From the IMG/VR virus record IMGVR_UViG_3300003430_000799: 64,000 nucleotides of DNA. One strand, given 5' to 3'. Shown here piece after piece: positions 25,542 through 47,062 of this stretch. Under the pieces are notes generated by a model. The model worked only from the letters and a program-made list of their open reading frames with translations. It ran no database searches and was not told the origin of the DNA. The stretch comes from a virus. Numbering within the stretch: the first letter of the stretch is position 1; each line of letters begins with the position of its first letter. The position numbers and the translations under genes are program-made.

Positions 25542-26102
25542 ATGAAAATAATAATAACTGAAGAACAATTAAGATTGATTATTGAAAATGAGGGTGGGGG
25601 TAATTTAATGGATTTCACTAAAATACCTAAAATTGGATTACCATATAATAAATGGGATAGTTACTTTTTGTTTATGAATAAGAAGAATGGGGGTAACTAT
25701 GATGGGTATTATATTGATGGTAACCTTGATTTAAGAAAATACAATATGGATGATTATATTGATGATTTTAATTTTGACTATGAGGAAGACAGGCCATTTG
25801 GATTTGAGTATTTGGTTAGGGTGAATGGTTTTTTACATTTAAGGAATAGTGAGATTAGTGATTTGAGTAATTTGAAATATGTGGAAAGTTATTTGAATAT
25901 TAATAATACTAAGATTGATAGGTTGCCTGAGTTGGAATATGTTGGTGGTGGATTTGCGATGGAAAATACTGAGATAAGTGAGTTACCAAAATTAAAATAT
26001 GTTGGTGGTGTATTGTCTATATCAGGTAGTCCACTAGTGAAAGATTATGATAAACTAAGGGAAACAAACCCACAGGTTTGGAAAAAAATAAATAGAGGTT
26101 AA
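25542..26102 (+). CDS. Leader-array gene 1: LRR-like 20-aa repeat protein
   Basis: MKIIITEEQL; LPELEYVGG repeats. Confidence 0.85.
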   Translation: MKIIITEEQLRLIIENEGGGNLMDFTKIPKIGLPYNKWDSYFLFMNKKNGGNYDGYYIDGNLDLRKYNMDDYIDDFNFDYEEDRPFGFEYLVRVNGFLHLRNSEISDLSNLKYVESYLNINNTKIDRLPELEYVGGGFAMENTEISELPKLKYVGGVLSISGSPLVKDYDKLRETNPQVWKKINRG

Positions 26103-26103
26103 T

Positions 26104-26511
26104 ATGAAAATAATAATTAATGAGAATCAGTATAAACTTCTTTTGGAGAACTATTTAGAAATCTTAAAAAATAATTCATTGCTGGATTCTACAGGAATTG
26201 AAGGAAGGTTCTTAAACAAGAGACAAGCTAAAGAATTGGAAAATGAAATAGTAAGTAACTATTCAGATGAACTTAAATTCGGAAAAGAAGATAATGATAT
26301 AAGAAGAAATATTTTTAATATTGATAATCCGCTTGCTGAAAAAACTATCAATGGTGTAACATTAAAAATTGTAGAAGGTTTGATTAAAAATAAGCGAAAA
26401 ACTTATCTTTTATATGCTGATAATCAATTGATAGGTGAATTTTATTCTGTAAAAGATATAAAAAATATCGTAGACTTTTTAGAAAGTAAATTAATTAAAA
26501 ATTTAAAATGA
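26104..26511 (+). CDS. Leader-array gene 2: hypothetical
   Basis: MKIIINENQY. Confidence 0.8.
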   Translation: MKIIINENQYKLLLENYLEILKNNSLLDSTGIEGRFLNKRQAKELENEIVSNYSDELKFGKEDNDIRRNIFNIDNPLAEKTINGVTLKIVEGLIKNKRKTYLLYADNQLIGEFYSVKDIKNIVDFLESKLIKNLK

Positions 26512-26520
26512 AATTGAGTT

Positions 26521-27024
26521 ATGAAAGTAATAATTAGTGAGGAACAATTAAGATTGATTATTGAATCTGAGGATAAAAGAAAATTATTTAGAGTCCCTGT
26601 GGATTTTTTAATAAATCACACTAATGCTATACTAAACAATTACAAGAAGAAAGGGTTTGATGGGATTATAGTTGAGGGTGAGTTGGATTTGAGTGAATCT
26701 GATTTGAACTTAATTGAAAATCTATTAGATAATATTGTTAAAGTTGAGGGTTATTTGAGTTTACAAAATTCGCAAATAACATCATTGGGTAAATTAGAAG
26801 AAGTTAAAGGTTATTTGGATTTAATTAAATGTACAAAATTAACAGATTTGGGTAATTTAATTTCAGTTGGGGCTTTGAATTTAAGATTTGTACCAATTAC
26901 ATCTTTGGGTAAATTAAAAGAAGTTAGGGGAACTTTATATATTGAAGATTGTCCCCTCGCTAAATTAAGTGATGAGGAGATTAGAAGTCAGGTAGAAATA
27001 AAAAGAAAAATATATAGAGGTTAA
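26521..27024 (+). CDS. Leader-array gene 3: LRR-like repeat protein
   Basis: MKVIISEEQL; ITSLGKLEEVKGYL repeats. Confidence 0.85.
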   Translation: MKVIISEEQLRLIIESEDKRKLFRVPVDFLINHTNAILNNYKKKGFDGIIVEGELDLSESDLNLIENLLDNIVKVEGYLSLQNSQITSLGKLEEVKGYLDLIKCTKLTDLGNLISVGALNLRFVPITSLGKLKEVRGTLYIEDCPLAKLSDEEIRSQVEIKRKIYRG

Positions 27025-27025
27025 T

Positions 27026-27466
27026 ATGAAAGTAATAATTAGTGAAGAACAATTAAGACAGATTATTGAATCTGAGAATGAAAGGAAGTTATTAAATGTT
27101 CCAGGTAACTTATTTTATAATAAGGCTTATGAAATTTTGAATAACTATAAGAAGAAGGGGTTTGATGGTATTAAAGTACTTGGGGGTCTAAGTTATAACA
27201 AAGAATACACGGATTTTGATATAATATTTGATAATGTAGTTGAGGTTGGGGATTATTTGGATTTGAACTATACCAATATTAAATCATTGGGTAATTTGGA
27301 GTATGTCGGTGGTAATTTATATCTTGCTCATTGTAGAAAAATAAAATCATTAGGTAAATTAAAATATGTTGGTGAGAATTTATTTATCGATAGTTGTCCC
27401 CTCGCTAAATTAAGTGATGAGGAGATTAAAAGTCAGATAGAGATAAAAGGAAAAATATATAGATAA
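27026..27466 (+). CDS. Leader-array gene 4: LRR-like repeat protein
   Basis: Paralog of gene 3; near-identical 3' ~70 bp. Confidence 0.85.
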   Translation: MKVIISEEQLRQIIESENERKLLNVPGNLFYNKAYEILNNYKKKGFDGIKVLGGLSYNKEYTDFDIIFDNVVEVGDYLDLNYTNIKSLGNLEYVGGNLYLAHCRKIKSLGKLKYVGENLFIDSCPLAKLSDEEIKSQIEIKGKIYR

Positions 27467-27467
27467 T

Positions 27468-28016
27468 ATGAAAATAATAATTAGTGAGGAACAATTGGAT
27501 AAGATGAAATCCAAATTAATGGGTTTGGTTAATAAGGAGGGATTTGATGGTACTGCTAAGATGTTGGGTATATCTAAACTTAAGTTATTTAAGTTGGTTG
27601 ATTATGGTATTGAGGAATTGGGTATTTATAATTTATTTCCCATTATGGTTGAGGAGAATAATGTATATAAGGGATGTGAGATTACAGTTGATTATTTTGA
27701 GGAGGGTTATCGTATTGATTGGTTGTATGAAATGGATATTGATGGTGGTAAGTTATTTGTTGTATCTATTGCGACACCTGATTTTGATGAAGGTATGGTA
27801 TATGTGGATAATAGTCATTCATTTGTGGAAGGTGGTATTATTAATTTTCAGAGTTACAATAATGGACTTGATTATAAGGTTAAAACGATTAGTTATGATA
27901 TTCCCACCGAATTTGGTAGTATTGATGAAATGATGAATTGGTATAATAATGAATATCTTCCGAAGACATATGAGATAATAAAAAGACAAGCTAAAGAGAT
28001 AGGTACACAAATATGA
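27468..28016 (+). CDS. Leader-array gene 5: acidic paralog family B
   Basis: YKGCEI...IPTEF...WY.NEY.PKTY. Confidence 0.85.
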   Translation: MKIIISEEQLDKMKSKLMGLVNKEGFDGTAKMLGISKLKLFKLVDYGIEELGIYNLFPIMVEENNVYKGCEITVDYFEEGYRIDWLYEMDIDGGKLFVVSIATPDFDEGMVYVDNSHSFVEGGIINFQSYNNGLDYKVKTISYDIPTEFGSIDEMMNWYNNEYLPKTYEIIKRQAKEIGTQI

Positions 28017-28579
28017 AAGTAATAATTAGTGAAGAACAATTGGATAAGATGAAATCTAAATTGATGGGTCTTATAGATAAGATGGGATTTTTGAATACTG
28101 CTGAGATGTTGGGGGTATCAGAAATTAAGTTATTGGGAATGATTGACTATGATATTAGTGGAATAACGTTATTTGACTTATTTCCAGTATTGGTTGATAT
28201 AAAGAAGGAATATAAGGGTTGTGAGATTGTGGTTGATTGGTATAAGGATGATGATTATGGTGTTTATTGGGTATATAATGAACAAGTAGGTAATTATCAA
28301 ATAAATTGTATTACAATGGCTTTTCCTGAGTTTCCTATTGGTAAAATATATGTTGAGAATGCTCATTGTTGGGTTGATAATAATTTAGAGATAAGTGATT
28401 TTAATAATAAAATTGATTATGATGTAGAGACAATTAATTATGAAATTCCCACCAAATTTGATAGTTGGGATGATATGGTTAAATGGTATGAGAATGAGTA
28501 TTTTCCAAAAACATATAAGATAATCGAAAAACAAGCGTTTGAAATAATTAAACAATTAAAACTAAAGAATAAAATCTAA
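28013..28579 (+). CDS. Leader-array gene 6: acidic paralog family B
   Basis: Paralog of gene 5. Confidence 0.85.
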   Translation: MKVIISEEQLDKMKSKLMGLIDKMGFLNTAEMLGVSEIKLLGMIDYDISGITLFDLFPVLVDIKKEYKGCEIVVDWYKDDDYGVYWVYNEQVGNYQINCITMAFPEFPIGKIYVENAHCWVDNNLEISDFNNKIDYDVETINYEIPTKFDSWDDMVKWYENEYFPKTYKIIEKQAFEIIKQLKLKNKI

Positions 28580-29037
28580 TGAGAATAATAATTAATGAGG
28601 AACAATTAAGATTGATTATTGAATCTGAAAGTAAGGATAATTTATTTTCTATTCCTGTTGGGTTTTTGATGGACTATACTGATTCGATATTGGATAACTA
28701 TAAGAATAAAAAAGATTATGATGGGATTAGAGTTGAGGGTAGTTTGCATCTGGATAAATTACCTGAAGATGTAATAAATAAGATACTTGGAGAGGTGGTT
28801 GAGGTTGATGGATTTATTAATTTGCAAGATAAAGATATTGAGTCATTGGGTAAATTGAAAAGGGTTACAGGTTCATTGGTGTTAATTCGTTGCAAAAAGT
28901 TGGAATCATTTGGTAATTTGGAATATGTTGGGTTGAACTTGGTTATTACCAATACACCCCTTTCTAAATTTAGTAAGGATGAAATAGCGGAAATGGTTGA
29001 TGTGGATAGAGATAGAATAATTAAAACAGGATTATAA
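28579..29037 (+). CDS. Leader-array gene 7: LRR-like repeat protein
   Basis: MRIIINEEQL; IESLGKLKRVTGSL. Confidence 0.85.
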   Translation: MRIIINEEQLRLIIESESKDNLFSIPVGFLMDYTDSILDNYKNKKDYDGIRVEGSLHLDKLPEDVINKILGEVVEVDGFINLQDKDIESLGKLKRVTGSLVLIRCKKLESFGNLEYVGLNLVITNTPLSKFSKDEIAEMVDVDRDRIIKTGL

Positions 29038-29038
29038 T

Positions 29039-29401
29039 ATGAAAATAATAATTAGTGAGAGCAAATTTGAAAAGTCGATTCAGAAAAAATTGGATGAGAC
29101 TTTGAGCTATTTAAAGATGGACGCTGAAGCTAATCCAAAAGATTATACCAAATTATTTTCTGAAAACATTGGCAATGTTGATGGAATTAAAGTTATGAGT
29201 ATTGATGTTTTGAAAGTACCAGAACTTAAATTTGATATTGAGGTTGAGGTTATTCTTGACAATGACATTCCTTTTGATAAGTGGGATACTATTGATATAA
29301 TATTAAAGGAAATTGTTTGGAGTATTAAAAATGATTTAATGATTAAATTAAAACTTAGTTTGGGTAACTTAACAATAAACAATAAAATGACTGATTGGTA
29401 A
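29039..29401 (+). CDS. Leader-array gene 8: hypothetical
   Basis: MKIIISESKF; weak similarity to the 31572 gene (C-terminal W). Confidence 0.8.
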   Translation: MKIIISESKFEKSIQKKLDETLSYLKMDAEANPKDYTKLFSENIGNVDGIKVMSIDVLKVPELKFDIEVEVILDNDIPFDKWDTIDIILKEIVWSIKNDLMIKLKLSLGNLTINNKMTDW

Positions 29402-29402
29402 T

Positions 29403-29945
29403 ATGAGAATAATAATTAGTGAAGAACAATTTGATAAGTATCAACAGAAGATGTTGGATGCAATTAATAAGTATGGATTTTCGGATGCTGTTAATATATT
29501 GGGTATTAATAGTATGAGGTTGGCACAATTAACTAATATTCCTATAAAGGGTGATACATTTTTTAAACATAATGAAGCTGTTGTTGGTCAATTATTAAAA
29601 GATTTGGTTGATATCAATGATGTATATAATGGATGTGAATTGGATTATGATTATTCGGAGGGTACAATTGCTTGGCGATGTAATTTTGATGACAAATATT
29701 ATACAAATACTTATGCCACCCCTTATTATACCAATAACGATTCAACTCCTATTGAAACTATAGGATTTATGGTGGATGATAACGATTATTTTGATATTGA
29801 TGGTTATCTTAAAGAGATGAAGAGTCCAACTGAGTTTAAGAATGTTGATGAATTAATTAGTTGGTTTGAGAATGAATATAAACCTACAGTATATAAAACA
29901 ATAAAGAGACATCTTAAACAATTTAAGGAGAAATATAATTTATGA
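29403..29945 (+). CDS. Leader-array gene 9: acidic paralog family B
   Basis: YNGCEL...PTEF...WFENEYKPTVY. Confidence 0.85.
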   Translation: MRIIISEEQFDKYQQKMLDAINKYGFSDAVNILGINSMRLAQLTNIPIKGDTFFKHNEAVVGQLLKDLVDINDVYNGCELDYDYSEGTIAWRCNFDDKYYTNTYATPYYTNNDSTPIETIGFMVDDNDYFDIDGYLKEMKSPTEFKNVDELISWFENEYKPTVYKTIKRHLKQFKEKYNL

Positions 29946-30697
29946 AAATAATAATAAGTGAAAATCAATTGAAACAGATTATTGAATCTGAGAATATGAA
30001 GAAACTATTAAGTATTCCTACTGAATTATTTTATAATAAGGTGGATGCTATTTTGGATAACTACAAGAAGAAAGGATTTGATGGTATTAAGTTAGTTGGT
30101 GATGTTAATTTTAATTCAGTGTTCTATATGGATTTTGATAGAATATTTGAACACATAGTTGAGATTGATGGAAATTTGGATTTAGGACGTACCTCTATTG
30201 AAAGTTTGGGTAAACTTAAATATGTTGGTGGTAATTTGATGTTATATGACACATCAATTAAAAGTTTGGGTTCTTTGGAAGAAGTTGGTGGTTATTTGGA
30301 TGTATCTCATTCCAAAATTGAAGATTTGGGGAATTTAACTTCTGTTGGTGATTGGTTCGTATTATGGAAAGCACCTATTAAAAGTTTGGGTAAACTTAAA
30401 TCTGTTGGTAGTTATTTAGATTTACAAATGACCTCTATTGAAAGTTTGGGTGAATTAAAATCTGTTGGTGGTTATTTGTATTTATCTGATACCCCTATTG
30501 AAAGTTTGGGGGAATTAGAATCTGTTGGTGGTGGTTTGGCTTTAGAACGTACCCCTATTGAAAGTTTGGGTGAATTAAAATCTGTTGGTGGTGATTTGAC
30601 GTTAAATAAGACTCCACTTGGGGGAAGGTTAAAATCAAAGATGAGTAAAGATGAAATTAAAAATAAATTTGGAGTAAATGGTAATTTATATATATGA
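29942..30697 (+). CDS. Leader-array gene 10: LRR-like protein with 7 tandem 20-aa repeats
   Basis: (T/S/A)xIESLGxLKxVGGxLxLxx repeats. Confidence 0.9.
   Translation: MKIIISENQLKQIIESENMKKLLSIPTELFYNKVDAILDNYKKKGFDGIKLVGDVNFNSVFYMDFDRIFEHIVEIDGNLDLGRTSIESLGKLKYVGGNLMLYDTSIKSLGSLEEVGGYLDVSHSKIEDLGNLTSVGDWFVLWKAPIKSLGKLKSVGSYLDLQMTSIESLGELKSVGGYLYLSDTPIESLGELESVGGGLALERTPIESLGELKSVGGDLTLNKTPLGGRLKSKMSKDEIKNKFGVNGNLYI
30191..30610 (+). repeat. Seven imperfect tandem 60-bp repeats encoding LRR-like units
   Basis: Units start at 30191, 30251, 30311, 30371, 30431, 30491, 30551. Confidence 0.9.
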
Positions 30698-31041
30698 AAA
30701 TAATAATAACTGAAGAACAATATAATGAATTAACTGATTGGGATATCTATTCTCAGTTGAGTCCTTGGTCAAGAAGGAGGATGCAATATATTGATATTAA
30801 ATCATCATTGGAACGTCACATTAAAAGAAACACTAAAATGATTCTTGATAATCCTATTGAGGCAACTGAAGGACTTATATATAAAATAATTTGGGACACT
30901 ATTCCTCTTATTTGGAATGTTAATATGGAGGAAGATGAATTTGATAAATATTTTCGTGAAATATATCCATTAATAAATAAAAAGTATGGTGAATATATTC
31001 AATCTGAGGTTGACAGGATTTATGATGAGGAATGGGATTAA
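30694..31041 (+). CDS. Leader-array gene 11: hypothetical
   Basis: MKIIITEEQY; RRR module similar to the C-terminal half of the 33621 gene. Confidence 0.8.
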   Translation: MKIIITEEQYNELTDWDIYSQLSPWSRRRMQYIDIKSSLERHIKRNTKMILDNPIEATEGLIYKIIWDTIPLIWNVNMEEDEFDKYFREIYPLINKKYGEYIQSEVDRIYDEEWD

Positions 31042-31057
31042 TAATTTTGTTATATTG

Positions 31058-31570
31058 TTACCAAGCATCATCATCGTCAAAAAATCTAATTGATTTATCA
31101 ATATCACGAATGGGTCTATTTTCAAATTCTTCTTTATATCTTGTATTCAAATAATTAATTAATGTTTTTTCATATTCTTCATTAGTTAATGATAAAAAAT
31201 TCTTTGCTAAGGATTTAATTGGTTTGATGAGACTAAATTCTCTAATAAAAAACCTACCCCAATGATTCTTCTCAAATGCTTTGTTTCCATTTTTATCTAA
31301 CCACTGATATGCGATAAGTTGTGGTTCATCTGGGTAAAGTCTTTCAATTGTTAGGTTATTGAATATGTCATCTAATAATTGGTAGTATAAATCGTTTGGT
31401 TCTAATTGCAATATTTCTAATACTTTATCAACACCAACCATTTTAACAACTTCTAATAAACCTTGTCGTTCAATTAGTCTTTCTAATTTTTCTTTGACTG
31501 TGTTATTTGATTCCTCATTAATAACCCCCATCATTTCTTGAATTCTATTTATTTGTTCTTGTAGATTCAT
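31058..31570 (-). CDS. MNLQEQ-leader array gene
   Basis: MNLQEQINRIQEMMGVINE; KLERLIERQGL module shared with 33121. Confidence 0.85.
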   Translation of the reverse strand: MNLQEQINRIQEMMGVINEESNNTVKEKLERLIERQGLLEVVKMVGVDKVLEILQLEPNDLYYQLLDDIFNNLTIERLYPDEPQLIAYQWLDKNGNKAFEKNHWGRFFIREFSLIKPIKSLAKNFLSLTNEEYEKTLINYLNTRYKEEFENRPIRDIDKSIRFFDDDDAW

Positions 31571-31571
31571 A

Positions 31572-31964
31572 TTACCATTGTCTATCTTTATTAGTGTTTA
31601 TTGAATCTTCTACTTGTAATTTAATATTGGGTATATATTTTTTAAGCTGCCATTGTAGTTCATAGATGAAGGCTTCTTCATCCATGGCCGCAAATATTGA
31701 TTCATATTTGATTATTATTTGAACTATGAATGTTTTGTCTGTTGGATTGATATTGGTTACTTGAACACTATTTAAGGATTCAAGGAAGTCACAAGCGTCA
31801 AATGAAATAATTTCTTCACTATCAGCATTCATTTCTTTACATATTTGTTTAACATAATCAATTTCTCTATTGATGAGGTTTTGGATTGCTGATAATTTTT
31901 TGTTATCTTCATTGATTGTCCCCATCATTTCTTGGATTCTATTTAATTGTTCTTGTAGATTCAT
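31572..31964 (-). CDS. MNLQEQ-leader array gene
   Basis: MNLQEQLNRIQEMMGTINE. Confidence 0.85.
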   Translation of the reverse strand: MNLQEQLNRIQEMMGTINEDNKKLSAIQNLINREIDYVKQICKEMNADSEEIISFDACDFLESLNSVQVTNINPTDKTFIVQIIIKYESIFAAMDEEAFIYELQWQLKKYIPNIKLQVEDSINTNKDRQW

Positions 31965-32209
31965 TTTTTTGTCTTTTTTACACAGTTAGGATATCTTTTA
32001 CCAAACATTGTTTTCATTCCTTTTTGAGTATAACCAGGCCAACATTTTTCGGTTAATTCTTTTTTTGAATTATCAATTCCACATTGATGACATAGATATG
32101 GTTCATCACCACCTTCAGAGAATTTCCAAGACCAACCACATTCTTTACAAGTTATAGTTTTATCAAATTCTTCTCTTAATATTCTTCTTATTGTTTGTTG
32201 TAAATTCAT
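31961..32209 (-). CDS. MNLQ-leader gene with Zn ribbon and CWxGY...PNCV module
   Basis: CKECG..CHQCG; EKCWPGYTQKGMKTMFGKRYPNCVK. Confidence 0.8.
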   Translation of the reverse strand: MNLQQTIRRILREEFDKTITCKECGWSWKFSEGGDEPYLCHQCGIDNSKKELTEKCWPGYTQKGMKTMFGKRYPNCVKKTKK

Positions 32210-32847
32210 ATTATTTCATTCTTAACTTTATCCCATAAACCTTTATTAACAATATAATTTGCAACATCATTAATTGATTTTTTAAAATCCCAATATCTTT
32301 CATCAGATATCCATTTTTTTATTATATCTCCGACTTGTTTATTTGATTTTGAAGCAAGATATGATGAAATTTTTTTAATTCTCCATTCATCAATATCATC
32401 GTTATCATAATTTTCTTCTACATATGGTCTACCAGTATCATTTAATTGATTAATAACTTCTTTTTTTAATTCATTGAAATCGTCAACCATTTTGGGACCA
32501 TATTTAATATTACCATCTTCGTTAGTCCATAATCTATATTCAATATTTTTACCAACTCTTTTATATGCACCACCTTCAATCTTATCTCCATCAACATAAT
32601 ATGGTATTAAAATAAAATCATCGTTTTTAAACAATATAATATCAGGTAAATCATTTACTAGTTTTTCTTGTAATTTATCTAAATTTCTAACTCTTGAGAG
32701 TCCTGAGTTTTTACCTATAAAAAGTTTTTCTTTCTCATCCCAATATAGATGTCCTTTACTATTAATCGCATCCAAATAGTCATCAATGTTTTCATTAATA
32801 ACCCCCATCATTGATTGTATTCTATTTAATTGTTCTTGTAGGTTCAT
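32206..32847 (-). CDS. MNLQEQ-leader array gene
   Basis: MNLQEQLNRIQSMMGVINE. Confidence 0.85.
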   Translation of the reverse strand: MNLQEQLNRIQSMMGVINENIDDYLDAINSKGHLYWDEKEKLFIGKNSGLSRVRNLDKLQEKLVNDLPDIILFKNDDFILIPYYVDGDKIEGGAYKRVGKNIEYRLWTNEDGNIKYGPKMVDDFNELKKEVINQLNDTGRPYVEENYDNDDIDEWRIKKISSYLASKSNKQVGDIIKKWISDERYWDFKKSINDVANYIVNKGLWDKVKNEII

Positions 32848-33119
32848 AATCTTCTGTATATTGATGAATCAACATAATAGGTTACACTTGACTTCTTTTC
32901 ATCAGATGTTCCCTTTTCCATTAATCCTTTTTTAACCAGTTTATTTGCCATCTTTATTTCTTCAGATGTCATAAATTTTCTCAATCTAACTTCGTCTCCA
33001 AAATCTTCAAGGAATTTTCTTTCATCATCAGATAAATCTTTAATCATATCATCTAATGAACTTTCATTGATAATTCCCATCATTTCTTGTATTCTATTTA
33101 TTTGTTCTTGTAGGTTCAT
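32844..33119 (-). CDS. MNLQEQ-leader gene, possible winged-helix
   Basis: ANKLVKKGLMEK...VTYYV. Confidence 0.75.
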   Translation of the reverse strand: MNLQEQINRIQEMMGIINESSLDDMIKDLSDDERKFLEDFGDEVRLRKFMTSEEIKMANKLVKKGLMEKGTSDEKKSSVTYYVDSSIYRRL

Positions 33120-33120
33120 A

Positions 33121-33624
33121 TTACATTAAGTTGTGTTCTACTTTTATGTCTATATTTTTTGGTATAAATGGTAAAAGAATGACATAAATAATTTCCATAA
33201 TTTCACCTTGGATTTCCCACCAATAATCTTCTTGCCATAAATCTGAGTCCCATAAATCTTTTGGTTCGTAATTATCATCAGTTAACAACATTACAGTTCC
33301 ATCACCTATTTTGGCATATACATACCATACATCATCACCTTCTTCATCAATATCGGTAATCTCGAAAGTAAAATCATATCCACCAGTATTGACATCGAAA
33401 TCATCTATTGAAAATGTTTTATCAAGAAAGAAATCTTGTGTTAATTGAAATGGTGTGGTTTCTAATATTTTTGATACTTTGTCAACACCAATCATTTTAA
33501 CAATTTCTACTAAACCTTGACGTTCAATTAATCTTTCCAATTTTTGTCTTGGTGAATTGATTGAGTCTTCATTAAGAGTACCCATCATTGATTGTATTCT
33601 ATTTATTTGTTCTAATAAATTCAT
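33121..33624 (-). CDS. MNLLEQ-leader acidic gene
   Basis: Leader plus shared second module. Confidence 0.85.
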   Translation of the reverse strand: MNLLEQINRIQSMMGTLNEDSINSPRQKLERLIERQGLVEIVKMIGVDKVSKILETTPFQLTQDFFLDKTFSIDDFDVNTGGYDFTFEITDIDEEGDDVWYVYAKIGDGTVMLLTDDNYEPKDLWDSDLWQEDYWWEIQGEIMEIIYVILLPFIPKNIDIKVEHNLM

Positions 33625-34256
33625 GACATCTTGTTATACAAATTTTTTATTTTGTCATCAAACATTTCTGAAACATCTTTAACAAATTTAATTTCTTCTT
33701 GTTCAGGTAATTCATCATACCCCATTTCATAATCTTCCCATATAATATATTCAACACATTTTAAAACCAATTCATATTTAAATTGTTCATAACTTTCTGT
33801 TTCATAATACACTTGTTGTGCAAACAATTTAAATAATTTTTGCAGTCTATTAAATTCTATTCTTCTACGAAAGAATGTTGATTCAGTCATAATACCCTTC
33901 ATTGATTGATTTTCAACAATGATTTTATTAAGTGTTAATGAATCTGAAGTTAGATTATTAAACACATTTTTTAGAACATTAGTTCTAAATTCATCACCTA
34001 ATGATTCAGGTATAAATGTATCCAAATAGTTTTTAACTCTACCTTTAAGAACTTTTAATGTTTTCTTTGGTTTGCTATATTCAAATACTGGTTCGTTTAA
34101 TTGGTCAGATATAAACCAAAATATAATTTTGTTTCCTTTTTCTCTTGGATATATTGATGTTGTTAGAACATTAACAACTTTCTTAAATATTCTTTCTTTT
34201 CTATTTTCATCAATTTCTTCCCTTAATATTCTTCTTATTGTTTCTTGTAAGTTCAT
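33621..34256 (-). CDS. MNLQET-leader gene (first of the minus array)
   Basis: TATTTAT at 34274-34280. Confidence 0.85.
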   Translation of the reverse strand: MNLQETIRRILREEIDENRKERIFKKVVNVLTTSIYPREKGNKIIFWFISDQLNEPVFEYSKPKKTLKVLKGRVKNYLDTFIPESLGDEFRTNVLKNVFNNLTSDSLTLNKIIVENQSMKGIMTESTFFRRRIEFNRLQKLFKLFAQQVYYETESYEQFKYELVLKCVEYIIWEDYEMGYDELPEQEEIKFVKDVSEMFDDKIKNLYNKMS

Positions 34257-34348
34257 TTGTAGATATTATCAATATAAATATTAAAAGATGAATAAAAAAA
34301 GGTGATAAGATAACCTATCACCTTTTAATAAGAACTTTTTCTTGTTGA

Positions 34349-34636
34349 TTACATTGGTAATGTTGGGTCAACTGGAGTTTCTGTTTGTCCCTTGCTTCCT
34401 CTTTTGGAAACAATCCATTTGTCAACGGATGCAATACCGAATGACGCAATTGTTAAATACATAAATCCATCAAAGATGAATTGATTGATTAACAATTCTT
34501 TTCCTGTGACACCAGTAACGATGTCAACACCCATTGCAATTACCATCATCATAAATGAAATGAATCCAACTACTGATTTTTCGTTGATGTCATTTTCATC
34601 TTTAAACATTTCAATAAAAAAATACTTTTTCTTCAT
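34349..34636 (-). CDS. Two-TM membrane protein, holin-like
   Basis: Two hydrophobic helices, charged C-terminal tail; holin role is inferred. Confidence 0.6.
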   Translation of the reverse strand: MKKKYFFIEMFKDENDINEKSVVGFISFMMMVIAMGVDIVTGVTGKELLINQFIFDGFMYLTIASFGIASVDKWIVSKRGSKGQTETPVDPTLPM

Positions 34637-34746
34637 AGGTTTGGTTTTTAATAATAAATATCTTAAACCATCACCTTTTACTATTTACTTTTTTGATTAT
34701 ATGTATTTACTCGTGCTCTATTGAGCCAGAAGTCCGTTTTTAATTT

Positions 34747-35130: not shown

Positions 35131-35356
35131 AATCAATTATATTTTTTATAAGGTTTAACATTGTTTCATTTTCCATATAACCATCAAATTGTTCTCCGTG
35201 ATTATCTATGGATAGAATATTATCGCCATTAACTGCGTCAAATACTTCGGTTGTTGGTTCTTTACTAACATAGACATTGAAATTACCCCATCTATATCTG
35301 TAACCGTTATACACAATACTACATTCGTATTTCAAATTAAGTTTATTTTTTTGCAT
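35108..35356 (-). CDS. Hypothetical protein
   Basis: Overlapping operon ORF. Confidence 0.65.
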   Translation of the reverse strand: MQKNKLNLKYECSIVYNGYRYRWGNFNVYVSKEPTTEVFDAVNGDNILSIDNHGEQFDGYMENETMLNLIKNIIDYEQRTNG

Positions 35357-35738: not shown

Positions 35739-35772
35739 ATTATTAAAATTTTAATTAAACAAACCATACTAT

Positions 35773-35865: not shown

Positions 35866-35910
35866 ACAATTTAAAGATTCATCATTTTTATAATTCCCTT
35901 TAGTATCATA

Positions 35911-37270: not shown

Positions 37271-38025
37271 AATGGAAATTTATAATTAATTAAATACTCT
37301 AAAATTTCTTCTTTTGAATTATTTTTAAAAAAGTGTATCCATTCTTCTCTATCGATGTTTTCTTCAACTTTTTTCAATGTTTCTTGTTTAGGTTCATTTG
37401 GCATTGCGTGGTAAGGTAAAACTTCAGTACTTGAAAATAAATGTCCTCCTCCTTTTTCTTCTTCTCTAACTATGTGGGTCTGTTTGGCTACATCATACCC
37501 AATATAAGTTCCTTTTGACCAATTTGAAAATACTTTAATCCAAACTTCTTCACCTTGTGTTGGATTCCATTCTTGTTTAGGTTCTTCTTGTGGAAAAACA
37601 ATTTCATATCTTAAAACATTATCATAACCTCTACATCTAAAATTATTACAATCTTCTACACCACAATTTTCGCATATCCGTTGTTTTTCAACTTCAACCT
37701 CCTCACAACTTGGATTCTTTACATACCACTCCAAGAATGTTTCATCAATAGCTTGTACACCATCTTTGATTAAGTCTTGGTCTGTTGTTAGGATGATTTT
37801 TTTAAATTCATCACCAACAATATTTTCAATACATTTATGTATTTTTCCTCGATATAGTGACCATTCCCCTGCTTTAGGATTCTCATCATTGGTGATGTAG
37901 ATGTTATAATCTATATGGTCAGAAATACCTCTATTATGGTCAGAAACTACATAATACTTAGTATTGGGTGATTTAGCTAAACTACCTGTTCCTTTGTCTG
38001 TTGGTAATACGTGTATGTTTTTCAT
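37267..38025 (-). CDS. Hypothetical protein (MKNIHVLPTDK...KIILTTDQDLIKDGVQAID)
   Basis: Start taken at ATG 38025. Confidence 0.75.
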   Translation of the reverse strand: MKNIHVLPTDKGTGSLAKSPNTKYYVVSDHNRGISDHIDYNIYITNDENPKAGEWSLYRGKIHKCIENIVGDEFKKIILTTDQDLIKDGVQAIDETFLEWYVKNPSCEEVEVEKQRICENCGVEDCNNFRCRGYDNVLRYEIVFPQEEPKQEWNPTQGEEVWIKVFSNWSKGTYIGYDVAKQTHIVREEEKGGGHLFSSTEVLPYHAMPNEPKQETLKKVEENIDREEWIHFFKNNSKEEILEYLINYKFPL

Positions 38026-39831: not shown

Positions 39832-39923
39832 TAGTCCTGACAGGATTCGAACCTGTAAATTGTGAAGGGGTTACGACCTTACCTATATTCTATTTTTGCG
39901 TCTACCAATTCCGCCACAGGACT
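39832..39923 (-). ncRNA. tRNA-like element 2
   Basis: AGTCCTG/CAGGACT acceptor, GGCGGAATTGGTAGACGC D-arm, T-arm; ~40-nt centre without a canonical anticodon stem. Confidence 0.75.
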
Positions 39924-40221: not shown

Positions 40222-40298
40222 TAGTCCTGACAGGATTCGAACCTGTAAACTTCCCCTTCACTTAAGGAGGGGTCACGTGTGCCTTCCGCCACAGGACT
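40222..40298 (-). ncRNA. tRNA-like element 3 (near tRNA size; atypical anticodon arm, possibly Leu-UAA-like)
   Basis: Same acceptor and T-arm; CCCCT/AGGGG stem around CCTTAAGTGA. Confidence 0.65.
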
Positions 40299-40906: not shown

Positions 40907-41019
40907 TAGTCCTGACAGGATTCGAACCTGTATTTGTATATGTTTGTGACCTCGACTGCCGCTGTATCCTCAAACTAAATCACCTGCCGATGTGCGTCTA
41001 CCAATTCCGCCACAGGACT
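40907..41019 (-). ncRNA. tRNA-like element 4
   Basis: Arms identical to element 2; ~60-nt unrelated centre. Confidence 0.75.
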
Positions 41020-41143: not shown

Positions 41144-41398
41144 ATGAAAAAGATAGTAAAACTTACAGAAACAGATTTAACTAGATTGGTTAAAAGAGTA
41201 ATCAATGAAGAGTATTGGAAGGATTATAATGAGGAATTAGAAGAACTAGAATCTAATTTGGATATGATTCAGGAAAGACTTGAGGGACTAACTCAAATTA
41301 TTGATAATGATGATAATTTAGACGATGATGAAAAGGATAATTTACAAGATTATGTTGATGAATTATATATTAGGTGTAAACCAAAGAAAAGACGATAA
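41144..41398 (+). CDS. Small acidic protein, MKKIVKLTETDL leader
   Basis: Leader; TATTTAT at 41109; terminator at 41399-41433. Confidence 0.8.
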   Translation: MKKIVKLTETDLTRLVKRVINEEYWKDYNEELEELESNLDMIQERLEGLTQIIDNDDNLDDDEKDNLQDYVDELYIRCKPKKRR

Positions 41399-41434: not shown

Positions 41435-44263
41435 TTAGAACTTATGACTAACACCCAATGTTAAAGTCACACCAGGATTAACACTATTGAATACTTGTTT
41501 CTCAGCTTTATAGGAGTGATAAAAACTCTCAACTCTATCATTAAGAATATTTTGAACTCTAAAATCAATTGATGTATTCTTAATCTTTTGACTTACAGAA
41601 AGATTCAATGAATGGAATGATTCATCATAAACATCAGGAGATAATCCAGTTCCAACAATGGATAATGTTTGTCCTTTAACATTATAAAACAACCCAACAT
41701 TCAACCCAATTTTATCGTTCTTATAAGATAATCCAGTATTGATTACAAATGGTGATTGTCCTGCCATAACTCTTGTATTGTCTATGTTTTCATTTAACCT
41801 TTCATATTGTTTTCTTGCTTGATATTCTGTCTCTGTCATCGTTATTTGTGACTTAACGAGTGTGACATTGGTATTGAAATAAAAGTTCTTTAGAAACGAT
41901 TTTCTTAACTCAAATTCCAATCCATACACATCACCATTACCAACATTCCTTGGTTGATATTCAGTTGATGTTTGTTGTTCAGGTATTCTAACAAGTTCAA
42001 TTGGATTATTGAAATGTTTATAAAACCCAGATATTGAATATAAATCATTTTTATTGGATAACTCCCATCTTAAATCCAAGTTATCAATATTTGTTGATTT
42101 CAAATTTCCATCCCAAGTTCCATTATATGTGAATAAACCACCATTGAATATTCTATTTGTGATTGGGTCTAATATCTGAGCATAAGATAATTCCTTGAAT
42201 GATGGTCTCGCAATCGTTCTTGAATATGATGTTCTTAGATTTTGTTTTGGTGTTATTGAATATATGATATTTGTTGATGGGAATAGATTTATCGTTTCCA
42301 TAACTTTATCATTAACCAAATTGTTTCCATTCACATCACCATTGGCATATCTTATATCTCTTCCTGTATGTCTTTGAATAAAGTATTCAGTTCTTAACCC
42401 CAAATTAATCTTTAACTTGTTTTTGATATTATAATCACCTGAAACATATACACCAAGATTATTAACATTTGATGAATATTGATTTGGATTTGGATTCACA
42501 TTACCAGATTGAATATAAGTTCCATTGACATCAGATGGATATAAGTTATCACTATTCATAACAAGATTGGGGTCTGGTGATGCCCAAGATTGTGGTTTTG
42601 AAAACATCAATTCAAATAACTTGATTTCATAGTTTCTCAATTTATATACGTGAGATAAACCAAAGTTCAATTTGAAGTTTTCATATTCTTTATTTATATC
42701 AATCTTTGATTGGTTATTAAATTCACCCAAGTTTCTCCATATCCTTGATGGATTTCCCGCTTCACCTGATGAGAATGAATATGAACCATCATAACTAAAT
42801 GGTGTCTTTCTAATGTCAGGGTCAATTGATGATGAATAAGTTGGGGATAATTTCCAATCAATATTCCAATTGTTTATCTTGTGTTTTCCACTTAATAGTA
42901 AATTGGTTAATCCTCTTTGATTGTATTCAAGATTATATGATGTTGCATCATAACCTGATTGTCCAACAGCTGATGAATTGTTTGATATGTTGAACTTACC
43001 AGCTCTACTTTCACCACTCTGTAAATGAATTAGATTTAATTTGTATTTACTCTTACCTTTAACAAAATTGAATCCAACTAAACCTCCCAATAGATTATTA
43101 ATTTCAGTTAATTGTCCTGATTGTTTTGTTGCATAAATCAAATCATATTGTGAGTTATCAGTTACCCTTTGGTATTCACCATACTTTACATTAGTATAAA
43201 ATCTATAATCTGTTTTTTGATTTAATGATACAATATAACCAAACTTTTTATTTGTTCTTCCATAAGAAAATCCACCGCCAAAATCCAAGAATGGCATACC
43301 ATTAACACCACCCAATTCAGGATTCAAACTTCTTAAAGTATTAATAATATTCTGTTGATGTTGTGCTGAACTTATACTTGATGGTTTGTTATATGGGGTT
43401 GGGATATAACTACTTCTTAGTTCATTTGGTAATCTTCTTATTCCACCATCAAATCCTAATATGTCAGTCATACTTCCTTTCTCACTAAAGAAATTATTAT
43501 TGAAGTGGGTTTGATTATTAAATCCTGTGGTTATTGAAAATGAACCTTGTGGTGTTTCAGGTATATCTTTTGTTTCAATATTTATTAATCCACCTGTAAA
43601 ATCTGCTGGTAATTCAGCTGAGAAACTTTTTGATACGACAATATTATTTAATAAATTGGTGGGGAATATATCCATTTGAAGTGAGTTTCTGTCGGGGTCT
43701 AACCCAGGTATTTCAACACCATTCATTATTGTCTTTGAGTATCTATCACCCAATCCTCTAACATAAACATATTTTCCATTATCTATTGATACACCAGTGA
43801 CTCGTTTACTTGCTTCAACGGCATTACCATCACCAGTTGATTTCATTTTCTCAGAACTAATACCATCAACCATTGTGACTGATTTCATTTTCATATCAAT
43901 CAGACCAATTTCATTTTTAACAATTCTGTCTGCGGTAATAACAACTTCACCAGTTTCTAATACATCTTCTTTAAGAATAATATCAGGGATGGTTGTTAAT
44001 TCACCAACCAATACAATATTTTCTTGGATTTCTTTTTTATATGAGACATATGAGAACTCTAATGTAACAGTGTCTTTGTCTGAGTCTATTGTGAATATAC
44101 CTTCAATGTCTGTTGTTGTACCAACTGAAGTTTCTTTGATTATAACTGTAACACCAATTAGAGGTTCTTTTGTATTTTCATCAACAACTTTACCAATGAT
44201 TGTAAATTGTGAAAAGGATTTAAATGATAATAGGAGTAATAGGACTAGAAAGATATTTTTCAT
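41435..44263 (-). CDS. TonB-dependent outer-membrane receptor (Bacteroidota type)
   Basis: Signal peptide; N-terminal GKVVDENTKEPLIGVTV domain; plug VYVRGLGDRY...GGLINIET; SRTIARPSF; C-terminal Phe. Confidence 0.92.
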   Translation of the reverse strand: MKNIFLVLLLLLSFKSFSQFTIIGKVVDENTKEPLIGVTVIIKETSVGTTTDIEGIFTIDSDKDTVTLEFSYVSYKKEIQENIVLVGELTTIPDIILKEDVLETGEVVITADRIVKNEIGLIDMKMKSVTMVDGISSEKMKSTGDGNAVEASKRVTGVSIDNGKYVYVRGLGDRYSKTIMNGVEIPGLDPDRNSLQMDIFPTNLLNNIVVSKSFSAELPADFTGGLINIETKDIPETPQGSFSITTGFNNQTHFNNNFFSEKGSMTDILGFDGGIRRLPNELRSSYIPTPYNKPSSISSAQHQQNIINTLRSLNPELGGVNGMPFLDFGGGFSYGRTNKKFGYIVSLNQKTDYRFYTNVKYGEYQRVTDNSQYDLIYATKQSGQLTEINNLLGGLVGFNFVKGKSKYKLNLIHLQSGESRAGKFNISNNSSAVGQSGYDATSYNLEYNQRGLTNLLLSGKHKINNWNIDWKLSPTYSSSIDPDIRKTPFSYDGSYSFSSGEAGNPSRIWRNLGEFNNQSKIDINKEYENFKLNFGLSHVYKLRNYEIKLFELMFSKPQSWASPDPNLVMNSDNLYPSDVNGTYIQSGNVNPNPNQYSSNVNNLGVYVSGDYNIKNKLKINLGLRTEYFIQRHTGRDIRYANGDVNGNNLVNDKVMETINLFPSTNIIYSITPKQNLRTSYSRTIARPSFKELSYAQILDPITNRIFNGGLFTYNGTWDGNLKSTNIDNLDLRWELSNKNDLYSISGFYKHFNNPIELVRIPEQQTSTEYQPRNVGNGDVYGLEFELRKSFLKNFYFNTNVTLVKSQITMTETEYQARKQYERLNENIDNTRVMAGQSPFVINTGLSYKNDKIGLNVGLFYNVKGQTLSIVGTGLSPDVYDESFHSLNLSVSQKIKNTSIDFRVQNILNDRVESFYHSYKAEKQVFNSVNPGVTLTLGVSHKF

Positions 44264-44321: not shown

Positions 44322-44340
44322 TATTAACTTATTGTTAAGT
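44322..44340 (-). promoter_or_regulatory. Pho-box-like site ACTTAACAATAAGTTAATA
   Basis: 18/19 identical to the site at 61310-61328; TAACA/TAATA at 11-bp spacing. Confidence 0.55.
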
Positions 44341-44342
44341 TA

Positions 44343-45194
44343 TTAAAATGCCATCACATCAAAATGGACTAATTCTCCATTTATTTGTCCAATGTTTTCT
44401 CCGTGTAAATCTTTTGTTGATATATTGTTTTCTTCCAACTTCAATAATAACTCTCTGTATTTTTCAATATAGTCTATTAGTTCATCAAATGTTATACTTA
44501 CACTTGGAGTTGGTTTTTCTCTTTTTGGTATGTAATAATTGTCTTCATCGTCATCATCAAACTCCTCATCTTCCTCATCATCTTCGTCATTACTATAATA
44601 ACCACTGATACCAATTGGTGGGAGTTCATCTTCAGGTTCAGGACTTTCCAATCTATCAACCAAATTATCCAAAAACTCATCATCATAATCATCCCAAAAA
44701 TCAGAATCAGAATAGTTTGCACCCATATAAAACATCGTTGTGTAAATATCTTTTTCTGTTTTTGGAATTGGGTTGGCTTTATCCATTAAAATACCATAAA
44801 TGTTATATTTGGGATAAAATTCGTATCCATAATAATTAACAATACCTGGTATTTCTTTCCCTACTATTTTTTCAATCCCTTTGATTTCATCTTGGTCTTG
44901 GGTTAGTTTCAATATCTTATTGTTATCAACTAAAAAGGCCATTCCATAATAACCTCTTCCAGCATATTTGATTTTTTTAATACCAAACTTATCAACCAAA
45001 TCATTAACAATATCGTTAATACTATTTCCTGATAATCCTGTTTTGATTTTGGTAATACCTCTTTCAGTACCTGAAATAACATCTTTTCTCCAGTCTTTTT
45101 TTAATTTCTTAACGTTTTTAATATCACCATAATCATCAAATTGTTCACTTACGAACTCATTCAAGATTTTTCTTATAATGTTTTTATTTACCAT
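44343..45194 (-). CDS. Protein-kinase-like fold protein with acidic insert
   Basis: GRGYYGMA P-loop, ILKLT, DLHGENIG catalytic loop, HFD. Confidence 0.75.
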   Translation of the reverse strand: MVNKNIIRKILNEFVSEQFDDYGDIKNVKKLKKDWRKDVISGTERGITKIKTGLSGNSINDIVNDLVDKFGIKKIKYAGRGYYGMAFLVDNNKILKLTQDQDEIKGIEKIVGKEIPGIVNYYGYEFYPKYNIYGILMDKANPIPKTEKDIYTTMFYMGANYSDSDFWDDYDDEFLDNLVDRLESPEPEDELPPIGISGYYSNDEDDEEDEEFDDDDEDNYYIPKREKPTPSVSITFDELIDYIEKYRELLLKLEENNISTKDLHGENIGQINGELVHFDVMAF

Positions 45195-45825
45195 ATTTTT
45201 CTTTGTGTGCTTTCAATATTGTTTGTATGACTTCTTCTTGGTCTTTTGATTTCATATTGTGAATTGGTTTATTTTCTTCAAACCAAGTTCTTACCACCTC
45301 TTCAAATGGGAGTCTCTTTAATTTTGCAAGTCTTTTGAATCCTTGTATTTGTGCTGGAATTTCGTGAGCTTGTTGATAATATTTCTTTGAAATTTTAGGA
45401 CTTTTCTTGTTTAAATTAAATTCATCGTAGTATTGTTGTAATCCGTGTTCCAATTCGTGAGCAATAATTATATTTAATTCACCAATGATATCATACATTT
45501 GTTTCTTCAAGTTATCAGGATTAACTTTAAGGATTATTTCAACAACATCATCATCAGTTGAATAAGCTCCATTAAGAAGAAATCTGTCCAAATTATCATC
45601 GTAGATAATTTTAAATTCTATTGTAAATTCGACCTCATAATCATCGAATCGATAAGAATCCATTTCTTCTTCAGAAGAAATATCTTCAGGTAAATAAAAT
45701 TCACCTTCTTCTTTTCTTTTAATTATGTCCGTTAAATCTCTAACTACTTTTCTAACAACATTCCTTTCAATTCTTGACTCATTGATAATTGAACGAAGTT
45801 GACTTTCACTAATTATTATTTTCAT
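45184..45825 (-). CDS. Leader + HExxH metallopeptidase-like domain
   Basis: MKIIISESQL; IAHELEHGLQ...HEIPA. Confidence 0.75.
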   Translation of the reverse strand: MKIIISESQLRSIINESRIERNVVRKVVRDLTDIIKRKEEGEFYLPEDISSEEEMDSYRFDDYEVEFTIEFKIIYDDNLDRFLLNGAYSTDDDVVEIILKVNPDNLKKQMYDIIGELNIIIAHELEHGLQQYYDEFNLNKKSPKISKKYYQQAHEIPAQIQGFKRLAKLKRLPFEEVVRTWFEENKPIHNMKSKDQEEVIQTILKAHKEKYGK

Positions 45826-46472
45826 ATAAATAACTCACCTTTTACTCCAAATTTATTTTTAATTTCATCTTCACTCATTCCACTATCTTTTAATTCTTTT
45901 CCAAGGGGTGTATTAGTTAACATCAAATCACCACCAACTGAAATTAAATTAGGTAATGATTCAATGTCTGTATTATCCAAACCTAAATCATATTCAACTT
46001 CTTTTAATTTAGGTAGGGAGGTGATTTTTGAATGAGCATAATATAAATCCCCAACTGACATTAAATTAGGTAGTGAGGTAATTTTACAACGATTTGTAAT
46101 ATATAATTGTTTATTAGTACTAACCAAATCATCCAAATCACTATTTAATCTGAAAAAATTTATTGTTTTCAAATTTGGTAAATTGAATATTAAGTCAATT
46201 GTCGTTTTAGATAAGTTAATATCCACATCTAAATTAGTCTTTTTTATTATTTTTTTCAAATTTATTACTGATGGTTTATATTTAAAAAGTTTGAATAATT
46301 CTTCATAATGTCCCAATATTGTACTCTGTTTTATCTTTAAACCTTTTGCAATCTGGAATGCAATATCAATATTTGTTTCATCAAATGTTTCAATTAATTC
46401 CATAATCTGTCCGAGATATTCCTCGTTTTCCAATATTAGTTTATACTGACTTTCTGTTATTATTATTTTCAT
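45822..46472 (-). CDS. Leader + LRR-like repeat protein
   Basis: ITSLPKLKEV/LPNLISVGG repeats; duplicate of 46469. Confidence 0.85.
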   Translation of the reverse strand: MKIIITESQYKLILENEEYLGQIMELIETFDETNIDIAFQIAKGLKIKQSTILGHYEELFKLFKYKPSVINLKKIIKKTNLDVDINLSKTTIDLIFNLPNLKTINFFRLNSDLDDLVSTNKQLYITNRCKITSLPNLMSVGDLYYAHSKITSLPKLKEVEYDLGLDNTDIESLPNLISVGGDLMLTNTPLGKELKDSGMSEDEIKNKFGVKGELFI

Positions 46473-47062
46473 ATAAATAACGTACCTTTAACTCCAAATT
46501 TATTTTTTATTTCATCTTTACTCATTCCACTATCTTTTAATTCTTTTCCAAGTGGGGTTTTTTCTAAACCTAAAGTACGCCCAACTGAAATTAAATTAGG
46601 TAATGATTCAATTTTTGTACCCTCTAACTCAAGAGTACCAACTTCTTTTAATTTAGGTAATGAGGTTATTTTACAGTTAGATGAAAAAAATAATTGTTTA
46701 TTTGTACTTACTAACTCATCCAAATCACCATCATTTAATGTGTAAAATGTAATTATTTGTAATTTTGGTAATTTGAATATTAAGTCAATTGTTTTTTTGG
46801 ATAAACTAATCTTAACATCTAAAATAGTCTTTTTTGTTATTTTTTTTAAATTTCCTATTCTTGGTTTATAATTAAAAACTTCAAATAACTCTTTGTAATG
46901 TTCCAATATTGTGCTCGGTTTTATCTTCAAACCTTTTGCAATCTGGAATGCAATATCAATATTTGTTTCATCAAATGTTTCAATTAATTCCATAATCTGT
47001 CCGAGATATTCCTCATTCTCCAATATTAGTTTATACTGACTTTCTGTTATTATTATTTTCAT
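46469..47062 (-). CDS. Leader + LRR-like repeat protein (one repeat fewer)
   Basis: First ~48 codons near-identical to 45822. Confidence 0.85.
   Translation of the reverse strand: MKIIITESQYKLILENEEYLGQIMELIETFDETNIDIAFQIAKGLKIKPSTILEHYKELFEVFNYKPRIGNLKKITKKTILDVKISLSKKTIDLIFKLPKLQIITFYTLNDGDLDELVSTNKQLFFSSNCKITSLPKLKEVGTLELEGTKIESLPNLISVGRTLGLEKTPLGKELKDSGMSKDEIKNKFGVKGTLFI

Follow-up and report, generated by a model that had tools for sequence, protein, structure and literature searches.

The 64,000-nucleotide stretch of viral DNA analyzed here (IMG/VR record IMGVR_UViG_3300003430_000799; hereafter the window) carries eight genes for leucine-rich repeat (LRR) proteins, which we name by their lower coordinates: seven lie between positions 25,542 and 47,062, and a divergent eighth begins at 62,049 (Table 1). 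Comparison with the DNA of relatives supports diversifying selection on the exposed strand residues of the repeats, and the set looks like a group of inherited, recombining binders in an arms race. That these genes form a binder repertoire is supported by their fold, by the location of the variable residues on one face, and by positive selection. No published description of a phage LRR multigene family came up in literature searches, and the contribution of the window is a clean codon-level selection test on such a family.

An initial annotation of this DNA had named eight repeat genes, and all of them were recovered. A hidden Markov model (HMM) of the 20-amino acid (aa) repeat, trained on the seven complete units of gene 29942 and run on the open reading frames (ORFs) of the window, matches exactly seven (29942, 27026, 26521, 28579, 45822, 25542, and 46469) at E-values from 2e-77 to 2e-6, with the next ORF at 0.48; for 25542, the value of 1.3e-8 becomes 1.6e-14 on iteration. 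Read in register, these seven genes hold 29 rungs of 19–21 aa, from 3 to 8 per gene. Gene 29942 repeats every 20 aa exactly, its units starting at aa 86, 106, 126, 146, 166, 186, and 206 after a partial first rung, and the xLxLxx strings listed for this gene had been read correctly. Alignment likewise upheld the proposals that 45822 and 46469 differ by one 20-residue rung and that both share their C-cap, TPLGKELKDSGMS.DEIKNKFGVKG.LFI, with 29942, at 56–58% identity over the last ~85–89 aa. Gene 62049 was missed by the repeat HMM, iteration included, and is placed as a divergent eighth member by hhalign, which aligns its first 116 aa with the family profile through ~3 rungs (96.9% probability, E 1.8e-10). 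Its tail is a ~350-aa acidic coiled-coil with a C-terminal globular part, and it has a single-copy full-length ortholog (ORF 101242, 40.6% identity) in G001, a related 282-kb IMG/VR record that is 96% complete; in this it differs from the small LRR genes.

Over 405 unique units from the wider family, the consensus is I-x-S-L-G-N-L-x-x-V-G-G-x-L-x-L-x-x-T, with leucine in 94% of units at position 14 and in 91% at position 16, and T, C, or S at position 19. Relative to the LRR segment LxxLxLxx(N/C/T)xL, one residue is inserted between V and LxL, and the proteins have the tandem 20–30-aa units with this segment by which LRRs are recognized. The LRR solenoids that the initial annotation had expected are what AlphaFold predicts for 29942 and 45822 (predicted local distance difference test, pLDDT, 93.4 and 92.5), each with an N-cap and a two-helix C-cap, and DSSP assigns one strand per rung on xLxLx in both models. 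The apparent N-terminal "domain" of 45822 is, in its model, a three-helix cap followed by two longer helix-backed turns. The first ~20 residues are poorly packed in both models (~58 pLDDT in 29942).

Searches against known structures agree with this fold. A family profile run against the PDB matches Vibrio FlrP (E 5.2e-14), YopM (3.7e-8), IpaH (3e-4), and also SspH LRR domains, and in exhaustive structure comparison with VIA-align, FlrP (8z5u) comes first (Z 16.8, root-mean-square deviation 3.6, 178 of 180 residues) in a top 50 composed mostly of LRR proteins; Foldseek against the PDB gives weak E-values, of ~1e-2. The LRR proteins matched best work through binding. Pfam LRR models stay under their gathering scores (LRR_4 at 13–16 bits vs 27, LRR_EndoS at 16.8 vs 27.9) and do not capture this repeat type. 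The Recep_L_domain model (PF01030, cut-off 21.8 bits) scores 23.4 on 26521, 22.0 on 29942, 21.1 on 25542, and 17.2 on 28579, with no hit in the others. Many homologues carry a precomputed match to this domain, and EGFR-type chains reach only E ~0.08 in the PDB profile search; the match probably reflects a common V/I-x-G-x-L-x-I rung motif. Pfam-type domain searches of the LRR proteins found no domain beside the LRR.

The family is large. Candidates of near length at E <= 1e-3 fall into 1393 clusters at 90% identity, all of them unnamed metagenome proteins, and the nearest ESM Atlas clusters are all Uroviricota. Searched by itself, the repeat region has 2514 representatives at 50% identity, among them long multidomain proteins that are heterogeneous (with a PI3/4-kinase domain, PcfJ-like, or eukaryote-like) and of no help on function. 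Intact family ORFs persist in many phage lineages; a scan of genome contigs by the leader pattern alone confirmed nothing and says little about bacterial homologues.

The contrast between a constant framework and a variable xLxLxx segment, described at first for 29942, holds over the 405 units: positions 13, 15, 17, and 18, the x residues, have entropies of 2.9–3.6 bits, and framework positions 1, 3, 4, 5, 7, 10, 11, 14, 16, and 19 have 0.9 bits or less. Among the 29 rungs of the window, the two core positions are Leu in 45 of 58 cases, and at the variable positions Asn, Asp, and Tyr are over-represented, Lys and Ile under-represented. Solvent exposure was taken from DSSP on the models together with standard LRR geometry; the variable residues occupy the outward-facing positions of the main beta-strand, so burial, which would have spoken against a binding role, is not predicted.

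Since LRR proteins generally show high entropy at the x positions, we tested for selection on the DNA, using counting methods (proportions of nonsynonymous and synonymous differences, pN and pS) and not site models. For 12 four-rung members of the 45822 subfamily, the 16 face codons were compared with the whole LRR block. In every one of the 62 informative pairs, pN at the variable codons is higher than pS of the block; over five phylogenetically independent pairs the values are 0.281 and 0.075 (Fisher p 1.4e-8), and over the three most recent pairs 0.187 and 0.014 (p 1.2e-6), a ratio of ~13. The variable residues are thus not neutral. Framework pN in this subfamily is 0.055. Between the tandem paralogs 45822 and 46469, pN is 0.64 at variable codons and 0.13 in the framework, where pS is 0.40, and among the last three, youngest rungs of 29942, pN at variable codons is 0.70–0.91 vs a framework pS of 0.09–0.26. 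Framework, caps, and leader are under purifying selection (omega, the ratio of nonsynonymous to synonymous change, of 0.2–0.5).

It is nonetheless possible to read such patterns as relaxed constraint, in which the x positions of an LRR are simply free to vary and a recombination-prone region has expanded neutrally, with no specific binding. The generally high x-position entropy of LRRs, the many fast-evolving ORFans among neighbouring genes, and two ortholog pairs with omega of 1 or less at variable codons agree with this idea, which however predicts pN no greater than pS, where variable-codon pN is here 3.7–13 times the pS of the same block; it also fits poorly with omega of 0.2–0.5 in framework, caps, and leader and with ORFs kept intact across many phage lineages. 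We consider it very unlikely.

The differences among these genes arise by several routes. Close homologues of 45822 (27 of them) have 3, 4, or 5 rungs, and IMG/VR loci have 1–22 units per gene. The genes are block mosaics, in that pS of the N-terminal part and pS of the LRR block are discordant in both directions (0.11 and 0.36 for 45822 vs locus L022; 0.14 and 0.00 for L022 vs L098), and one homologue joins a 46469-like N-terminal stretch to 45822-like rungs, so that LRR blocks are exchanged between conserved flanks. The DNA of the junction from C-cap to next leader is itself repeated (26895–27054 vs 27340–27496, 84% identity over 160 bp) and is a plausible recombination substrate. Whole genes turn over as well: in L001, a 270-kb ENA contig syntenic with the window at roughly 70–90% nucleotide identity, two of four LRR genes are orthologous to window genes (25542 at 90% nucleotide identity; 27026 at 85%, or 74% aa), and 26521 has no ortholog there. 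Array size differs too, with 5, 9, and 16 or more of these genes in other phages. At loci L023, L025, and L038 (IMG/VR 3300027863_001119, 3300005573_001079), 14 to 16 or more LRR genes stand in tandem, with leader MLNKLSFNNIFIPRKIDEIEEKE and 4–22 rungs, including one 583-aa gene with 22, and in these arrays the variable positions extend to 8, 9, 11, and 12.

As far as the locus and its relatives tell, this variation is inherited, not programmed, and the "antibody-like" character first ascribed to the set does not extend to programmed or somatic diversification. A diversity-generating retroelement (DGR), or cassette assembly like that of lamprey variable lymphocyte receptors (VLRs), could in principle diversify the strands among the phages of one population. 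In favour of this, the framework is modular and does not vary, and the enrichment of Asn, Asp, and Tyr recalls DGR variable regions. Adenine mutagenesis of AAY codons, the DGR chemistry, cannot yield E, K, Q, R, M, or W, and about 21% of the variable residues are one of these six; the substitutions include G-T, C-T, and C-G, so the spectrum is not adenine-specific; and comparison of the window with itself shows no near-identical copy resembling a template repeat. In addition, 9–12-kb stretches covering 23225–37466 are 100% identical in three separate JGI metagenomes (L003–L005), and relative to L056, a locus of ~94% identity over 9 kb, there are zero changes in the LRR blocks of 45822 and 46469, which argues against ongoing hypermutation. 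We rejected programmed variation on these grounds and regard it as extremely improbable.

The leader of these proteins is not theirs alone. Eighteen window genes, among them LRR genes and at least five unrelated families, start with M[KR][IVL][IL]I[STN]E, whose codons vary while the residues are kept (leader omega 0.21). By eye this N-terminus is charged and amphipathic, unlike a hydrophobic signal peptide. Other lineages have the same LRR body with other leaders, such as MKNLIRKILKEY and MLNKLSFNNIFIPRKIDEIEE. Of 75 distinct family leaders, 91% have the motif [IL]xE within their first 20 aa, vs 34–35% of other ORFs; (I/L)-x-E is the type of site cut by the T4 prohead protease.

Further leaders recur in the window and its relatives. 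On the minus strand, 31058–34256 holds seven tandem, sequence-unrelated genes that converge on the LRR array and carry a second leader, MNLQEQINRIQEMMGxINE or MNLQETIRRILREE; none of the seven has a Pfam or PHROG family, and the leader is also on three G001 genes. A third, MKK/R-I-I/V-R/K-LTExDLxxLVKRVI, is on at least six genes and a fourth, MKRLIIxExEK, on three (7388–22344, 41144–41398). Directly downstream of 46469 and 45822, 45184–45825 (minus strand) combines a MKIIISESQL leader with a metalloprotease-like HELEH (HExxH) motif and has no Pfam hit; ORF 23968–24366 has a HEYTH motif. G001 contains another expanded leader-tagged family, ~35 tiny genes (53–95 aa; L072–L074, ~133.9–159.7 kb) that start MKTKIxLGKSV or MKEVIxPRIxLGKSV, carry xSV repeats (SSVxxSV...), and lie in two opposed arrays adjoining the G001 LRR array.

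The LRR genes also have an upstream motif in common with structural genes. In both LRR operons the first gene has TATTTAT 12–30 nt upstream, as does 62049; the plus-strand operon has 11 genes and is opened by 25542. In G001 the motif lies 15–29 nt before the portal, the prohead protease, and several 1200–2100-aa ORFs. This placement suggests a late, structural class of expression. The sequence TATAAATA, the T4 late promoter, was tried as a sense motif and rejected, the sense-strand motif here being TATTTAT(A). Hits at 45825 and 46472 were also rejected as promoters, since they arise where the coding sequence ..LFI* runs into the next ATG. Upstream of the plus-strand operon, a ~750-bp non-coding stretch (24792–25541) is unusually G-rich (GC skew +0.35) and holds GGAGTGGAGCGGTTCACCCACTGAAGGTGGGGG directly ahead of TATTTATA; its role may be regulatory or that of an RNA element.

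Table 1. LRR genes of the window, interleaved genes, and candidate promoter motifs.
Feature	Position	Strand	Length	Description
LRR gene 25542	25542..26102	+	186 aa	Leader MKIIITEEQLRLIIENE, N-cap, 4 rungs (FLHLRN, YLNINN, GFAMEN, VLSISG), short C-cap
LRR gene 26521	26521..27024	+	167 aa	4 rungs of 19–21 aa, C-cap CPLAKLSDEEIRSQVEIKRKIYRG; HMM E 1.5e-13
LRR gene 27026	27026..27466	+	146 aa	3 rungs; HMM E 2.6e-20
LRR gene 28579	28579..29037	+	152 aa	3 rungs; HMM E 9.6e-11
LRR gene 29942	29942..30697	+	251 aa	Leader aa 1–17, N-cap aa ~20–70, 8 rungs, two-helix C-cap aa 225–251
LRR gene 45822	45822..46472	-	216 aa	Leader, three-helix N-cap, two longer helix-backed turns, four (short) 19–20-aa rungs, C-cap; HMM E 8.9e-10
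LRR gene 46469	46469..47062	-	197 aa	Tandem paralog of 45822 (70.5% aa), one rung fewer (3)
Divergent LRR member 62049	62049..63479	-	476 aa	Leader MKKIIIDSKQFEKLV, N-cap, ~3 rungs (aa ~55–125), fused tail
Non-LRR cassette	26104..26511	+		Interleaved in array; LRR-type leader MKIIINENQYKLLLEN
Further non-LRR cassettes	27468-28016, 28013-28579, 29039-29401, 29403-29945, 30694-31041			Similar to 26104..26511
Candidate promoter motif TATTTATA	25516..25523	+		18 nt before ATG of 25542
TATTTATA motif	50447..50454	-		Before 48701-50428, first gene of the minus-strand run with 46469 and 45822

The cassettes interleaved with the plus-strand LRR genes, like the large neighbouring ORFs, match no Pfam or PHROG family. 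Two large paralogs on the minus strand, 47064–48704 and 48701–50428 (546 and 575 aa), head the operon of 46469 and 45822; they too have no family match, share a single G001 homologue (45% and 37% identity), and show omega of 0.39–0.47 vs L056.

The window is AT-rich (27–34% GC), with short, tightly packed ORFs and frequent ATGA overlaps, and judging from its relatives it is probably part of an uncultured T4-type jumbo phage with a Bacteroidota host, because of the head genes of G001 and because the homologues of its TonB-dependent-receptor gene come from Bacteroidota only. G001 has homologues of 39 of the 101 window ORFs (27–67% aa identity, with local synteny) and encodes, in T4 order, a T4-type portal (E 1.6e-77), prohead protease (4e-25), and gp23 capsid protein (2e-65); PF03420, the T4-type prohead protease, is found in four of five related IMG/VR records at E ~1e-24. 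The 146-aa product of 27026 is on record on a 295-kb contig. With the window's TonB-dependent-receptor gene as query, every homologue is from Bacteroidota, at 27–42% identity. This 942-aa gene (41435–44263, minus strand) lies inside the phage and has a Bacteroidota-style signal peptide; its best homologues are in metagenome-assembled genomes of Bacteroidales and Saprospiraceae (35–42% identity), and its omega vs L056 is 0.05. Rfam matches three tRNAs on the minus strand (39832–39923, 40222–40298, and 40907–41019), of which ARAGORN calls one (tRNA-Leu, anticodon TAA); the other two, at 92 and 113 nt, carry insertions. The phage collection has no nucleotide match to the window, and in a tblastn search of it the sole match is a distant homologue in the temperate Edwardsiella phage Edno5 (37% over 130 aa), whose gene lies in the early accessory region with the cI repressor on one side and exo/recT on the other.

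The explanation that we favour is that the eight LRR genes belong, as germline-encoded members, to a large family of small LRR proteins that is specific to phages, each protein having a single domain, with a diversifying binding face, variable host targets, and possibly a place in the capsid, and we give this explanation as a whole about an even chance. Each protein would consist of a 17-aa leader, an N-cap, n rungs of 20 aa, and a two-helix C-cap, with the leucines forming the core and the x residues of xLxLxx lining one face of the solenoid as the binding surface. Diversity would arise by point substitution on this face, by gain or loss of whole rungs, by swapping of the LRR blocks that lie between conserved N-terminal and C-cap/leader flanks, and by gain, loss, or replacement of whole genes in a hyperplastic region. 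Most likely, each paralog would bind a different variable host-cell target during infection, in the service of host takeover or counter-defence. The proteins may also be loaded into the capsid and enter with the DNA as T4 internal proteins do, a suggestion based on the TATTTAT motif in common with head genes and on the widely held leader with its (I/L)-x-E site. As to the targets, the initial annotation's proposal that they are host defence proteins is a hypothesis, for which the sole positional hint is the early accessory location of the Edno5 homologue. A stronger version, in which LRR "paratopes" are loaded by a portable leader, injected, and each neutralize a different host immune sensor or effector before phage expression begins, seems to us rather doubtful; if true, it would amount to a pre-made, evolvable, multi-specific counter-defence arsenal on one scaffold.

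Several observations weigh against the favoured explanation. The strong selection signal comes from one subfamily, since 25542 compared with its L001 ortholog shows no excess of change at variable codons (omega 0.54), and neither does 27026 (3 nonsynonymous and 0 synonymous changes). Selection would have to be episodic and not continuous, given the unchanged LRR blocks relative to L056, where 45822 and 46469 are 96.8% and 99.0% identical with whole-gene omega of 0.31 and 0.24. Codon bias and gene conversion can lower framework pS. For capsid loading, the (I/L)xE enrichment is partly circular, the motif lying inside the leader that defines the set; a leader of some kind stands on about 30 of the 101 window ORFs, a high number if it were to mark capsid cargo; and the T4-type head module is seen in relatives only. 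The same type of LRR occurs, moreover, inside a 2983-aa protein of another phage that matches the PHROG "virion structural protein" (E 4.6e-31), which fits a role on the virion surface as well as one as cargo.

The main rival is just such a role. The LRR proteins could be interchangeable virion-surface adhesins whose short conserved N-terminus or N-cap docks on a fibre or baseplate and whose variable face binds the host surface, widening or shifting host range among Bacteroidota with variable surfaces. Receptor-binding proteins likewise show diversifying selection on the exposed face, the LRR operons bear the motif found before structural genes, and the 2983-aa protein places the same units in a virion context. 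There is also a parallel in phage Goslar, in which one N-terminal module precedes LRR, hydrolase, or carbohydrate-binding domains that have been proposed to recognize the host (bioRxiv 10.64898/2026.04.21.720040). On the other hand, the leader has only ~17 aa and is also on about 30 unrelated small ORFans of the window, no recognisable tail gene adjoins the LRR genes in the window, and the sole homologue in a cultured phage, that of Edno5, lies in an early accessory region and not in a tail module. We regard adhesins as somewhat unlikely. The proteins could alternatively bind the phage's own products, as assembly factors or structural accessories such as chaperones for paralogous virion components. 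FlrP, which among solved structures is the closest relative, serves as a structural brace, and the genes are apparently of late class, but partners encoded in the same genome would impose co-evolutionary constraint, not strong diversifying selection, and would not explain the fast turnover of genes between close relatives; we hold this to be highly unlikely.

Comparison with known systems may help to place the family. FlrP, described as a "typical LRR protein", acts as a brace on the flagellar rod and has a Sec signal; the LRR domains of IpaH, SspH1, and SlrP appear in PDB titles in complexes with host proteins. Like FlrP (8z5u), Yersinia YopM, and the Shigella/Salmonella IpaH and SspH LRR domains, the window proteins have 20-residue units without convex helices in a near-straight beta-solenoid. 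Unlike them, they have the core V-G-G-x-L-x-L-x-x-T-x-I, with an extra residue before LxL and Thr for Asn, have their own N- and C-caps with no Sec signal and no E3 ligase domain, and are encoded by a phage in multigene arrays with an N-terminal leader. Virus-encoded, tandemly expanded LRR families are also known from an entomopoxvirus and giant viruses, and Amsacta moorei entomopoxvirus, Klosneuvirus, Catovirus, and Marseillevirus are among the best structural matches in BFVD; those viruses infect eukaryotes, and several of these matches are named F-box/LRR proteins, whereas the window family is from a bacteriophage, has 20-aa units, and falls with Uroviricota clusters.

In plant NLR and receptor LRRs and in the lamprey VLR, a constant framework is combined with positive selection on the exposed xLxLxx, variable repeat number, and exchange between paralogs. 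The window family resembles these repertoires in its constant framework, selected xLxLxx, repeat-number variation, and segment exchange (see also PMC6771003). It differs in that a virus holds the repertoire, that there is no signalling domain, and that VLR-type somatic assembly is absent, the locus being identical across samples. A phage parallel to the proposed loading is that of the T-even internal proteins, described as highly diverse defence proteins against host enzymes with only a capsid targeting sequence in common (PMC3012670). As with IPI, IPII, and IPIII, what is probably a T4-type phage here has unrelated small proteins in a hyperplastic region that share only a short leader, in this case with (I/L)xE; a T4-type prohead protease is present in relatives. 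Unlike those proteins, the candidate cargo is a repeat-protein family with a tunable face, the leader is different in sequence and stands on many more genes, and packaging and cleavage are proposed.

Known phage counter-defence proteins are mostly one-off small folds, and here a single tunable scaffold occurs in up to 16 or more copies per genome, with positive selection on its binding face. If the leader is a loading signal, then the capsid-targeting principle of T4 extends to a whole class of environmental jumbo phages. The family would be a source of natural binders in the hundreds, and what they bind could bring new defence or surface systems of Bacteroidota to light; the repertoire would be the phage-side counterpart of the LRR immune repertoires of hosts.

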